From IMG/VR virus record IMGVR_UViG_3300037400_003293, positions 1,206 to 65,205 of that record: a stretch of DNA of 64,000 bases. One strand, written 5' to 3'. Position 1 is the stretch's first letter. Every line of letters starts with the position of its first letter. The position numbers were made by a program, and so were the translations under genes. Positions 2,951 through 17,544 of the stretch are shown piece by piece. The notes below the pieces were generated by a model, which saw only the letters and a program-made list of their open reading frames with translations, made no database searches and was not told the DNA's origin. Origin of the DNA: a virus (Duplodnaviria; Caudoviricetes).

Positions 2951-3406
2951 GTGTCGAATATGCCAACCGTTGAGAATTTTACACCACAGGTATTGTGGAC
3001 CACCATCTATGGCCTGTTTGCACTGTGTCTGTTGTTCATGGTTGCATACAAGGTCTATGATGCTGTGCATACCATTCTCGAACGCCGGCGGCAAAAACGG
3101 GAATCGGAAAAGCCCGACTTTGCTGAAGCCGTCAGCCGCAAGGTTATCGAGAAACTGGAGCCTCGATTTAACGAGATCGAGAAGAATCTGGCACGTGACA
3201 AAGCTCGGCTGGATAATCATGAGTCATTTATTACCGACATACGAACATCCCAGCAGGACACACGGGAAGGATTAGCAGCCATTTGTAGATATCTGTTGGC
3301 CATCGCTCAATTTGGTAACATCAGTACCGACAGCAAGGAAATGCGGGAAGCAACCGCAGAAATGAATGCCTATTTGGTATCGAAGCTTGGAGGGAGATCA
3401 AAATGA
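2951..3406 (+). CDS. Membrane-anchored coiled-coil protein (holin-adjacent)
   Basis: N-terminal TM helix (VLWTTIYGLFALCLLFMVAY) followed by a coiled coil; directly upstream of the holin. Confidence 0.6.
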   Translation: MSNMPTVENFTPQVLWTTIYGLFALCLLFMVAYKVYDAVHTILERRRQKRESEKPDFAEAVSRKVIEKLEPRFNEIEKNLARDKARLDNHESFITDIRTSQQDTREGLAAICRYLLAIAQFGNISTDSKEMREATAEMNAYLVSKLGGRSK

Positions 3407-11852: not shown

Positions 11853-11982
11853 AAAGGGACGAATACAAAGGGTTAGCCCAATTAAATAAGTAGCGAGCTC
11901 TAGCTGAATAAGCTTATGTGTGTAGATAAAGTTATCGGACGCTTTGTAATCGTTTAGAGGAATCACAATTCCTCTTCCCTTT
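11853..11982 (+). ncRNA. Putative structured small RNA (cassette payload)
   Basis: Directly follows the repeated motif. AAAGGGA/TCCCTTT closing stem, TACAAAG/CTTTGTA inner stem and GAGGAAT/ATTCCTC hairpin; no credible ORF. Confidence 0.55.
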
Positions 11983-12010
11983 TGTGGTAAAGGTCCTTAC
12001 AAAGAAAAAG

Positions 12011-12055
12011 GTGGATCAGCGACGAGGTTTAGGAGCCCAAAATCGCTGATCCCAC
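12011..12055. terminator. Inverted repeat downstream of the tRNA-Cys fragment (minus strand)
   Basis: GTGGATCAGCGA / TCGCTGATCCCAC; positioned to follow the reconstituted host tRNA after integration. Confidence 0.55.
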
Positions 12056-12063
12056 TGGTTCTT

Positions 12064-12112
12064 TGGAGGCGCCATCCGGATTCGGACCGGAGCATAAAGG
12101 TTTTGCAGACCT
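12064..12112 (-). mobile_element. attP core = 3' half of tRNA-Cys(GCA)
   Basis: The reverse complement reads AGGT-CTGCAAA-ACCT TTATGC TCCGG-TCCGAAT-CCGGA TGGCGCCTCCA (anticodon arm GCA, T arm, acceptor and CCA). The 5' half is absent. It lies about 240 nt downstream of int. Confidence 0.85.
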
Positions 12113-12210
12113 CTGAAAGAAAGGACGGGTGAGTTTCTGTGTAGTCTAATATGAAGAAATATGCGAGCTTATACGAAAAATACACAGGCTTTTGTGAAGG
12201 AGGTGGCAAT

Positions 12211-15771: not shown

Positions 15772-15813
15772 CACGAAATTTTCAAGCCTTCTTATGAAAG
15801 GAGGTTCGATAAT

Positions 15814-15954
15814 ATGGTTTCTATCGGACAATTAGTAGGTTTGTTAGGTTTCGCATTTATTTGTTGGATTTCCGGCTATATCTGTGGAGAAGGACATGCA
15901 TTGATTGACGAGGAGAAAAAGAAAGAAACGGCCTCTATTGCAGAGAAGGAGTGA
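15814..15954 (+). CDS. 46-aa membrane peptide (cassette 1)
   Basis: MVSIGQLVGLLGFAFICWISGYICGEGHALIDEEKKKETASIAEKE*; own motif, RBS and terminator. Confidence 0.7.
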   Translation: MVSIGQLVGLLGFAFICWISGYICGEGHALIDEEKKKETASIAEKE

Positions 15955-16019
15955 GCGCAAAGCCCACTCTTTTTTTTCGCGAAATATACAAGCCTTCCTA
16001 TGAAAGGAAGGTGCTGAAC

Positions 16020-16121
16020 ATGACGCAGGTAGCAGTATTATTCTTACTCGGATGTATGTTAGGTGAGTATCTGGATAAAAGGCAGGAGCGTAAATCAGCT
16101 TCGAAGGAGTATAAGGGGTGA
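16020..16121 (+). CDS. 33-aa membrane peptide (cassette 2)
   Basis: MTQVAVLFLLGCMLGEYLDKRQERKSASKEYKG*; own motif, RBS and terminator. Confidence 0.7.
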   Translation: MTQVAVLFLLGCMLGEYLDKRQERKSASKEYKG

Positions 16122-16184
16122 GCGCAAAGCCTCTCCCTTTTTCACGAAATAAACAGGCTTTCTTATGAAAGGAAGGTGATTAAT

Positions 16185-16289
16185 ATGATCTTTACTCTGA
16201 CATGTATGTTTCTTCTTGGTTGGTTTATTGGCAATTACCAAGGGCACAAAGCAGAGAAAGCAAAGAACAATCCTGATCAAAAGGGGTGA
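16185..16289 (+). CDS. 34-aa membrane peptide (cassette 3)
   Basis: MIFTLTCMFLLGWFIGNYQGHKAEKAKNNPDQKG*; own motif, RBS and terminator. Confidence 0.7.
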   Translation: MIFTLTCMFLLGWFIGNYQGHKAEKAKNNPDQKG

Positions 16290-16378
16290 GCGCAATGCTC
16301 GCTCCTTTTTTTTTTTCACGAAATAAACAGGCCTTCTTATGGAACGGACGAGATCCGTATCGAAAAGGAGGATGGTTT

Positions 16379-16531
16379 ATGGAAATTTTGTTTGTATTGA
16401 TCTTGCTTGGATTAGCGACTGGATGTATTGGACTCGTGATCGCGGCAAGAGCATTCGACTGGTTTTTGGATAAACTGATCCAGTTGATTCGTGAACGGAA
16501 GAGCTCGTGTGAGTGGAGGAATGGCCTGTAA
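16379..16531 (+). CDS. 50-aa membrane peptide (cassette 4)
   Basis: RBS AAAAGGAGG; MEILFVLILLGLATGCIGLVIAARAFDWFLDK... Confidence 0.7.
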   Translation: MEILFVLILLGLATGCIGLVIAARAFDWFLDKLIQLIRERKSSCEWRNGL

Positions 16532-16582
16532 CAAGGGCCATTCTTCTTTTTCACGAATTTTACAATGGGTGTTATGGAAGAG

Positions 16583-16906
16583 ATGTAAGTCTGAGCATTA
16601 GGTAATGCACTTAGATGAAGATGGATGTGGATCGAAACCACACGGACTTACATTACAGTTGCGGATAACAAGAAATTAGTAGGTGACGAAAGTTTCTAAG
16701 AAGCGAGGCTAAGAGAGAGGTAGACTCCTGATCGACCAACATAAAATATCGGCGGTTATCTGAGGGCGCTGCAGCGTCAATGACTGTATAAGAACTAAAA
16801 GTGGCGTGCCACCAAAGCGTGGTCCGATTTACGAAGAGGATTTCGATCATATGCAGTGATCAGAAATTGGTATGGCGAGTAACGACGTGAGTCTTGCAAG
16901 TTCTTA
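16583..16906 (+). ncRNA. Large structured ncRNA with a tRNA-like 5' domain
   Basis: Multiple nested stems found by eye (see findings); bracketed by the repeated motif and a poly-T tract; no RBS-supported ORF. Confidence 0.7.
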
Positions 16907-16940
16907 TTTTTTTTTCACGAATTTTACAAGTGATATTATG

Positions 16941-17023
16941 GAGAAGGAAGAACTGTGACACGCATGTAGTCGATTAGGTTCGACCGGTCTATACGGAGTG
17001 CGTTGCTCCCGTATAGCCTTCTC
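16941..17023 (+). ncRNA. Putative ~85-nt structured RNA (cassette payload)
   Basis: GAGAAGG/CCTTCTC closing stem, GTCGA-TTAGGT-TCGAC and CTATACGGAG/CTCCCGTATAG hairpins, then a T tract. Confidence 0.55.
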
Positions 17024-17052
17024 TTTTTATTTTTCGAAAGGAGCACAAACTT

Positions 17053-17544
17053 ATGGCTGAACCCAATGAACGAAGGATCAAAATTGAAGAGGAGGACATG
17101 GAGCTTTGGATTGATGCACTTGATGACTCTGTCCAAACGGGCGAATCTACAGTCCGGGCAATAAACGTCTGTATGCGTTATTTAACACATTCCGGTGTAC
17201 TTGAACGGATGACATTCATTCAGGCGCTTTTGGACGATGATATATTCAAAGATATTCTCATGTCCAGAAACTGCGGAGAAAAGACATCTAATCATTTGAA
17301 GAGAGCAAGGCTGCTGCTGAAGGAGAGGTGCAAAGAGATGGGTACGGTTAAGGTCCCTGATATTCTGCCATTAGCAAAGGCCGATCCAAAATTGTTTAAA
17401 CAGTTCTCGACTCTCTATAAGTTTTTTGGATGGGATGTCGGTGGTGACAGGCTTCATTATGCTTCAGCTCGTGCGAGCCAGTACAGAAAGAGGGCAGAAG
17501 AGCATGTGGGAGAACGGGATTCTCTTCTGACAGATCAAAAATAG
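17053..17544 (+). CDS. Protein with an RNAP alpha-CTD-like helix-hairpin-helix segment
   Basis: TVRAINVCMR...DILMSRNCGEKT resembles alpha-CTD SVRxxNCLKR...DLMKxRNLGxKS; RBS GAAAGGAG. Confidence 0.5.
   Translation: MAEPNERRIKIEEEDMELWIDALDDSVQTGESTVRAINVCMRYLTHSGVLERMTFIQALLDDDIFKDILMSRNCGEKTSNHLKRARLLLKERCKEMGTVKVPDILPLAKADPKLFKQFSTLYKFFGWDVGGDRLHYASARASQYRKRAEEHVGERDSLLTDQK

Follow-up and report, generated by a model that had tools for sequence, protein, structure and literature searches.

The 64-kb window analysed here covers almost the whole of a 65.2-kb phage record in IMG/VR, and its long ORFs all lie on the + strand. Its primase/polymerase is 53% identical to the counterpart in Faecalibacterium phage FP_oengus, and phages of Arthrobacter, Gordonia, Streptomyces, and Enterococcus also carry relatives of it. 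The region from 15.7 to 17.1 kb is a row of small units, each running from a shared motif through a payload to a hairpin with a T-run. Four promoter/terminator cassettes at 15772–16551 encode peptides of 37–56 aa, and the last of these (16379–16531, 50 aa) recurs unchanged in seven or more further assemblies. The unit at 16550–16915 is supported as a discrete, ORF-free structured-RNA cassette on the + strand, and we refer to its RNA as RNA1. Its overall layout is as follows.

16550–16915, + strand: the cassette, consisting of motif, ~325-nt RNA, closing stem, and T9
16550–16578, + strand: promoter-type motif TTCACGAATTTTACAA-N6-TTATGGA, common to all small cassettes of this phage and also present in related phages
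16654–16788, + strand: domain 2, a multi-helix fold
16789–16906, + strand: domain 3, a multi-helix fold
16907–16915, + strand: T9 run directly 3' of helix P3a, with the next promoter motif starting at 16914

The sequence TTCACGAATTTTACAA, a perfect copy of the motif, occupies 16550–16565, and a second copy lies at 16914–16929. Allowing up to three mismatches, we found 15 copies of the 16-nt motif core in the window, 13 of them on the + strand, against 2.3 expected, and none of 100 shuffles reached 15. A longer form, CACGAAwTTTACAA-N5-8-TTATGRA, has 13 copies in the window (10645–36975), all of them on the + strand and between genes. The motif recurs throughout 80 related-phage loci, and in relatives it lies 0–5 nt upstream of tRNA or tRNA-like genes that end in T-runs. 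Conservation of a ~30-bp form, CGCGAAATTTACAAG-N4-TATTATGAGA, extends from phages of gut Firmicutes to those of Arthrobacter (L003–L082; L001).

The motif is not σ70-like, because a Shine–Dalgarno (SD) sequence directly follows TTATGRA in the peptide cassettes; the SD immediately after TTATGAA in these micro-peptide cassettes also places the transcription start inside the motif or at its end. Since it is not σ70-like, the motif is a candidate promoter of the YonO-like RNA polymerase of the phage (ORF 37917–40889). This 990-aa ORF is 40.5% identical to the 'putative RNA polymerase' of FP_oengus and carries DNDGD, with ADNDGD at residue 557. A preprint describes the FP_oengus homologue as a YonO/crAss-like polymerase common to the whole supercluster to which these phages belong, and makes no mention of promoters or non-coding RNAs (bioRxiv 10.1101/842583). 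A link between RNA1 and the phage RNA polymerase would have a plausible basis in these features.

At the other end, the T9 run after P3a is probably where the transcript ends, and a closing stem followed by a T-run also terminates the tRNA-like cassettes of related phages. The boundaries given in a first-pass annotation of this DNA, namely an upstream motif and a downstream poly-T, hold, and each sequence feature it listed was found where it had been placed. No + strand ORF of at least 30 aa, nor any SD-led ORF, lies inside 16605–16906. All + frames of the unit are interrupted by several stops and none has an SD-led start, in agreement with the earlier statement that there is no RBS-supported ORF. 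With its promoter-type motif, its closing stem followed by T9, and no ORF, the unit is a candidate for an independent sRNA gene.

Distribution of RNA1 among related phages

Close relatives were collected through the 163-aa ORF downstream, whose near-identical versions in Logan, ENA, and JGI assemblies form a single cluster. Two of these contigs carry RNA1: L098 in full (2036–2357), and L108 as the 3' half (1–157), the contig ending there. The three known copies represent two alleles. In 10–11 close relatives (L099–L101, L104–L106, L109–L112) the slot is empty, its gap of 157–158 nt holding only the next RNA, and RNA1 is dispensable in that close relatives do without it. Two further contigs have a different, ORF-poor cassette of 290 nt in the slot (L096:2575–2865 and L097:1510–1800), flanked by near-identical promoter and terminator sequence. 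This cassette is closed by AACAATG/CATTGTT and a T-run and contains, by eye, a 47-aa ORF without a good SD. We rejected it as a homologue, as it shares only AAG.AGCGAGG.TAAG and CCTGAYCG with RNA1 and has no nhmmer, R1, or R2 match (R1 and R2 being the covariance models described below); we treat it as unrelated to RNA1 or too distant to call. The occurrence of an AAG.AGCGAGG.TAAG-type core in L044 lies within a gene and was put down to chance. Because the slot is polymorphic among close relatives, RNA1 is an accessory cassette, and it appears to be gained or lost by recombination between the repeated promoter/terminator modules.

L098 comes from a fairly distant phage, with flanking genes ~76% identical to the window in nucleotide sequence, yet the block 16520–17523, which spans RNA1, the cassette after it, and the beginning of ORF 17053, is 87% identical. 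The homologue search suggested by the first-pass annotation extended the family no further: nhmmer with RNA1 gave no match in 80 related IMG/VR loci, the only relatives being L098 and L108 from the ORF-cluster contigs, and BLAST against 50 whole related phage records returned only chance matches of 14–18 nt. R1, a covariance model of domain 2, found only the window, L098, and L108 among 95 loci and the 50 records. In INPHARED phages, blastn matched only the neighbouring RNA (16923–17028). Exact-word scans used five RNA1 words, four of them conserved between the window and L098; these gave only tRNA T-arms or nothing in a viral contig collection, four chance 20-mers in a metagenome contig collection, and nothing in a genome contig collection. 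RNA1 has no paralogue in the window.

A tRNA-like head in domain 1

The first 71 nt of RNA1 form domain 1, whose parts are listed here.

16583–16593, + strand: 5' strand of the closing stem, ATGTAAGTCTG, pairing with 16643–16653
16595–16608, + strand: D-arm-like hairpin GCAUU-AGGU-AAUGC, with GG in the loop
16609–16625, + strand: 17-nt linker ACUUAGAUGAAGAUGGA, identical in L098
16626–16642, + strand: T-arm-like hairpin UGUGG-AUCGAAA-CCACA, with an invariant stem
16643–16653, + strand: 3' strand of the closing stem, CGGACUUACAU, pairing with 16583–16593

Domain 1 was compared with R2, a covariance model built from seven tRNA-like genes of related phages (in L003, L004, L014, L032, L034, L052, and L067); the training set held no sequence from the window or from its close relatives of the 163-aa-ORF cluster. 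When the whole 64-kb window was scanned on both strands with filters off, R2 had a single significant match, at 16587–16650, with a modest score of 18 bits and a rough E value of 0.0036. This match spans model positions 1–72 and is the only one below E 0.9 in the 64 kb; domain 1 of L098 gives the same match at 18.4 bits. The alignment runs from end to end, with the inner 7 bp of the closing stem aligned to the acceptor stem and the two hairpins to the D and T arms, while the linker supplies an anticodon-arm stub (CUU-AGAUG-AAG; 3-bp stem and 5-nt loop in R2) and a 5-nt equivalent of the variable loop. Domain 1 aligns to the R2 model over the full length of the latter and sits directly downstream of the promoter motif; it is tRNA-like with the anticodon arm reduced to a stub, which is how it had first been described. 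Its score is far below the 30–85 bits of true R2 members, which marks it as a derived relative and not a typical member. By this alignment domain 1 is a degenerate tRNA, apparently derived from the tRNA-like genes of related phages. The GG of the D loop would meet the UC of the T loop to form an elbow. Tools for ordinary tRNAs do not recognise it: ARAGORN called no tRNA gene and no tmRNA in the window, and the tRNA family RF00005 had no match at E up to 10.

Between the window and L098 the domain, linker included, hardly varies, with only 4 of its 71 nt changed. Three of these changes are G.U/A-U/G-C interchanges in the 11-bp closing stem that keep every pair, which bears out the stem as originally proposed. 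As such changes interconvert G-C, G.U, and A-U, the pairs form only in the + strand RNA and not in its complement or in DNA cruciforms. The D-arm-like stem is invariant, and its loop changes from A to G in L098 with the GG kept. Domain 1 also folds far better than expected (minimum free energy z = −3.75; 0 of 200 shuffles fold as well).

Promoter-driven tRNA-like genes with odd anticodon loops are present in related phages at L003:9518–9589, L014:9321–9392, L004:5861–5933, L034:5143–5211, L052:5708–5777, L032:7286–7369, and L016:5839–5906. They end in T-runs without an encoded CCA, and ARAGORN gives them 2-nt or 4-nt 'anticodons' or makes no call; their Rfam tRNA scores are 36–63 bits. The related-phage cassettes include one normal tRNA-Glu; in several others the anticodon loop is 6 or 8 nt long, or ARAGORN misses the gene. 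Separately, the 19-mer GTGGATCGAAACCACACGG of domain 1 matches, letter for letter, the T arm carried by tRNA-Tyr-like elements of the tRNA arrays of unrelated large phages. Wider kinship with these jumbo-phage elements was rejected, since the identity stops at the T arm. The tRNA-Tyr(GUA)-like element (L091:20–115, L092:2387–2418, L093:785–876, L094:6290–6380, L095:3538–3629) has a D arm with a stem of 5 bp and a loop of 5 nt. Its variable arm is long, it carries CCA, and it receives no ARAGORN call.

Domains 2 and 3

Domains 2 and 3 abut domain 1 with zero-nucleotide junctions and contain the following elements.

16654–16659 with 16783–16788, + strand: P2a, TACAGT/ACTGTA, one wobble change
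16663–16669 with 16755–16761, + strand: P2b, GGATAAC/GTTATCT, four compensatory pairs
16671–16677 with 16691–16697, + strand: P2c, AGAAATT/AGTTTCT, two compensatory pairs
16698–16712, + strand: invariant single-stranded block AAGAAGCGAGGCUAA
~16713–16730, + strand: variable hairpin, present in both alleles with unrelated sequences
16739–16755, + strand: invariant single-stranded block ACAUAAAAUAUCGGCGG
16765–16769 with 16774–16778, + strand: P2e, GGCGC/GCGTC, invariant and so uninformative for covariation
16789–16796 with 16899–16906, + strand: P3a, closing stem TAAGAACT/AGTTCTTA, two compensatory pairs and one wobble
16805–16812, + strand: C-rich strand, partner 16819–16823 (local hairpin) or 16868–16874 (long-range)
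16826–16835, + strand: invariant block GAUUUACGAA
16840–16850 with 16856–16867, + strand: P3c, variable bulged hairpin, present in both alleles with unrelated sequences
16879–16897, + strand: P3d, GUGA-capped hairpin, invariant

Covariation, which the first-pass annotation had proposed as a check, was examined in the window, L098, and L108, which with two alleles is essentially one pairwise comparison, on a structure taken mainly from the stems first proposed. In the three-sequence alignment the 66 proposed pairs are 97.5% paired, the structure being partly derived from one of the sequences compared. Nine pairs have compensatory double changes, against 0–3 in register-shifted controls (three sequences, two alleles), and five more have one-sided G.U-type changes that keep pairing on the + strand only; within the limits of this small set, the excess over the controls points to selection on base pairing.

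Among the clearest cases is P2b, where GAUAAC/GUUAUC is replaced by UGCAGC/GCUGCA in the other allele through four double changes. In P3a, UAAGAACU/AGUUCUUA becomes UAGCAGCU/AGCUGUUA by two double changes and a wobble, and L108 carries a third variant, UAACAGCU. P2a keeps its pairing through its one change, so that these three stems stand as first drawn. P2c stands in part: its outer three pairs change from AGA/UCU to GGU/ACC, and its inner four are broken in L098, which has CCC-GUGA-GGG instead. Two hairpins of the original description are not upheld. The proposed GTGG-CGTG-CCAC acquires a G-G mismatch in L098 and L108, and its CCAC covaries instead with a downstream GTGG (16819–16823) or a distal UGG(U/C); CCAC/GUGG becomes CCGC/GCGG, and each of the two candidate partners of this C-rich strand shows one compensatory pair. 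At the place of GATCA-TATGCAG-TGATC, now P3c, L098 and L108 have a different bulged hairpin of 11 bp (one bulge in L098), against a 10-bp stem with one bulge in the window. The alignment is ambiguous at GAG-AGGTAGA-CTC, where L098 has a hairpin ACGG/CCGU.

The substitutions between window and L098 are patchy, clustering in stems and in two hairpins and leaving blocks of 15–43 nt identical. Two GUGA-capped hairpins and several single-stranded blocks are invariant or re-created between the alleles. Independent minimum free energy folds of the window and L098 sequences give the same layout of P2a, P2b, P2c, and P2e. The folding energy of the whole RNA is unexceptional (z = −1.0). Domain 2 folds no better than shuffles (z = −0.4), and domain 3 gives z values of −2.5 and −1.8, so that folding energy is informative for domains 1 and 3 only. 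Several finer readings were rejected: a likeness of GAUUUACGAA to the promoter core covers only 6–8 nt and is at chance level, and neither an 11-nt GNRA receptor at GGCUAAG/UAUGG nor a switch in which J4 (UAAGAAG) pairs with the 3' strand of P3a is conserved in L098.

Known RNA families and the possible role of RNA1

No Rfam 15 family matched the window at its gathering score, including Y RNA, tmRNA, 6S, RNase P, T-box, GOLLD, ROOL, riboswitches, and ribozymes. Inside 16583–16906 the only match at E ≤ 10 was the SpF41 sRNA (RF02435), which reached 13.6 bits (E 5.8) where its gathering score is 52; SpF41 resembles domain 1 in its closing stem, central hairpin, and T-arm-like hairpin, at a score too far below gathering to count as a match. 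The Rfam comparison suggested by the first-pass annotation thus left RNA1 without a family. Its idea of a possibly new ornate RNA class is upheld to the extent that RNA1 falls outside every Rfam family, and 'class' is generous for three copies and two alleles. Our verdict is that RNA1 is a real, new, and very rare structured non-coding RNA with a tRNA-derived head, which may serve as a tRNA-shaped decoy or scaffold. The first-pass annotation had offered, as candidate roles, a decoy for tRNA-targeting defences or a scaffold for the phage polymerase.

One close likeness is to the tRNA-like genes of FP_oengus-type phages, which have the same promoter motif directly upstream and likewise end in a closing stem and T-run. 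Unlike a tRNA, with its 5-bp anticodon stem and 7-nt loop, RNA1 has an anticodon arm of only 3 bp with a 5-nt loop, an acceptor-like stem of 11 bp, and, in place of a 3' end at that stem, 255 nt of further structured RNA. In tmRNA, a tRNA-like domain formed by the two ends of the RNA carries CCA. In both RNAs an acceptor/T-arm stack with a reduced D region, and with the anticodon arm missing, is linked to other structured RNA. The head of RNA1, however, is closed on itself at the 5' end and lacks CCA, no reading frame for a tag is present, and ARAGORN makes no tmRNA call. GOLLD and ROOL are large ornate RNAs of phages and prophages, ~500–800 nt long, known in thousands of copies and often found beside tRNA genes. 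RNA1 resembles them in being carried by a phage, in its several domains and apparent lack of protein, and in a genomic setting related to tRNAs, but it has no similarity to their models, is 325 nt long rather than about 500–800, is known from three copies rather than thousands, and, in contrast to them, gives no evidence of multimerisation. The bacterial YrlA-type Y RNAs join a tRNA-mimicking module to a Ro-binding stem (PMC4201824). RNA1 is similarly modular, with a T-arm/D-arm elbow mimic lacking a working anticodon arm joined to other structured parts, but its tRNA-like part is at the 5' end instead of within the terminal stem and it is about three times longer. RNA1 also differs from Y RNAs in having no Rfam Y-RNA match and no recognised Ro-binding helix, and Pfam and PHROG scans of about 20 window ORFs gave no match to Ro60 (rsr). 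By analogy, RNA1 would work most like the modular tRNA-mimicking RNAs, namely the YrlA-type Y RNAs and the tmRNA head, although it has none of their defining features.

We favour the reading, at a probability of roughly 0.55, that RNA1 is a self-contained accessory structured-RNA gene whose product is a tRNA-shaped ligand acting in trans, with domains 2 and 3 as a scaffold. The gene would be read from the + strand as an RNA of ~325–335 nt, starting at the motif of this phage family, probably by the phage's YonO-like RNA polymerase, and ending at the U-run that follows P3a. Domain 1 would keep the tRNA elbow and the acceptor/T stack without an anticodon loop or a free CCA end. RNase P and T-box RNAs measure a 12-bp stack of acceptor and T stems; the acceptor-like stem and T stem of domain 1 add up to 16 bp. 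Without an anticodon loop and a free CCA end, and with a stack of 16 bp instead of 12, the domain could not decode and would be a poor RNase P substrate. The dispensability of RNA1, the near-invariance of domain 1, the missing anticodon loop and free 3' end, and the 16-bp stack argue against decoding, against a bait for anticodon nucleases, and against ordinary tRNA maturation. The simplest reading is recognition of the elbow and stack by some factor, with domains 2 and 3 as scaffold: RNA1 would most likely bind or titrate, in trans, a host or phage factor that recognises tRNA shape, and domains 2 and 3 would stabilise it or hold a second partner. An antisense action of the invariant blocks on other phage sequences was rejected, the complementary stretches being at most 10 nt long and at chance level.

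A broader proposal, which we consider unlikely, makes RNA1 the most elaborate member of a family-wide system of non-decoding tRNA mimics in the FP_oengus / Lactococcus 1706 / actinophage supercluster, in which the phages' own YonO-like RNA polymerase and a dedicated promoter are used. The members would be the tRNA-like genes whose anticodon loops have 6 or 8 nt, the neighbouring RNA at 16941–17023, and RNA1, acting as decoys or hijackers of host machinery that recognises tRNAs, such as tRNA-directed immunity or tRNA-modifying and -processing enzymes; the two extra domains of RNA1 would recruit a second partner.

If RNA1 is instead a processing precursor, its tRNA-like head would be a handle for RNase P, RNase Z, or RNase E, releasing domain 1 or domains 2–3 as the active species. 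Small RNAs in the tRNA clusters of phage T4 and mascRNA/MALAT1 are precedents for tRNA-linked RNAs. The alignment of domain 1 to a full cloverleaf fits this, the zero-nucleotide junctions would be defined cleavage points, and the tRNA-like genes of related cassettes must be matured by host enzymes. We nevertheless think it unlikely, as the acceptor-like and T stems exceed the 12 bp of RNase P and the stem of domain 1 is followed by neither discriminator nor CCA.

A role in cis is very unlikely. RNA1 would here be a 5' region sensing a ligand or factor, with P3a and the U-run as a conditional terminator for the next cassette and ORF 17053–17544. A full copy of the promoter motif (16914–16942) stands between RNA1 and that gene, close relatives lacking RNA1 keep this promoter, leader, and gene unchanged, and there is no conserved antiterminator pairing, the J4/P3a alternative of the window being absent in L098. 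These points outweigh the atypical form of the terminator, in which the stem before T9 closes a three-way junction, and the fact that RNA1 immediately precedes a second leader-like RNA and a gene.

It is highly improbable that RNA1 is a non-functional remnant, that is, a decayed tRNA cassette with filler DNA between recombining promoter repeats and stems owed to chance or hitch-hiking. Its rarity and dispensability, the unexceptional folding energy of the whole RNA, and a recombinogenic slot able to hold unrelated sequence would suit such a history; against it stand the excess of compensatory pairs over the slid controls, hairpins swapped for different hairpins at the same place, invariant blocks beside fully diverged stems, and an RNA1 block more conserved than the flanking genes.

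Neither strand behaves as protein-coding: the 87 substitutions between window and L098 fall 27/29/31 over the three codon phases, without codon periodicity, and a 65-aa minus-strand ORF (16850 to 16653), whose 66-aa counterpart at that place in L098 is likewise open, is hardly credible as a gene and was rejected, having no SD before either start, differing N-termini, a flat substitution count over codon positions (18/21/22), and conserved residues that only mirror the invariant RNA blocks, in a phage whose every other gene is on the + strand and at a site where G.U-type changes pair on the + strand only.

The usual explanations for tRNAs encoded by phages are codon usage or the replacement of tRNAs cut by defence systems. 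On the favoured reading, as a trans-acting tRNA-shaped ligand, RNA1 would be a case in which a phage keeps, under selection, an elbow-bearing, non-decoding RNA fused to two further conserved domains. Should such RNAs act on tRNA-binding factors, whether as decoys or as adaptors, gut Firmicutes phages would offer a compact and testable example of RNA used for counter-defence or to take over the host. With three copies known, its rarity limits its weight and makes it a lineage-specific curiosity for now. The cassettes would also supply ready-made promoters and terminators for work on the YonO-like phage RNA polymerases, about which little is known.

Other elements of the region deserve mention. 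The next cassette (window 16916–17052) consists of a promoter, an 83-nt three-way RNA (16941–17023), a T-run, and the RBS of ORF 17053. It is 73–80% identical to unannotated Arthrobacter phage DNA (L001:3000–3108 and 3144–3281; L005:6204–6302), and Giantsbane has two tandem copies. This RNA is far more widespread than RNA1, and in many related gut phages its slot holds a tRNA-like gene, for example L034:5143–5211 and L055:5948–6016. A weak tRNA-like R2 match on the minus strand of the window at 12067–12146 (10 bits, E 1.2) has a good T arm, CCGGUCCGAAUCCGG. The site lies a short way downstream of the gene for the integrase and may represent an attP core that corresponds to a host tRNA gene at its 3' end. 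Promoter-led stretches of 280–460 nt without an SD-led ORF (L016:2985–3445, L067:1323–1785, L032:1674–2003, L038:5490–5770, and window 11854–12210) are possible further non-coding RNA cassettes.
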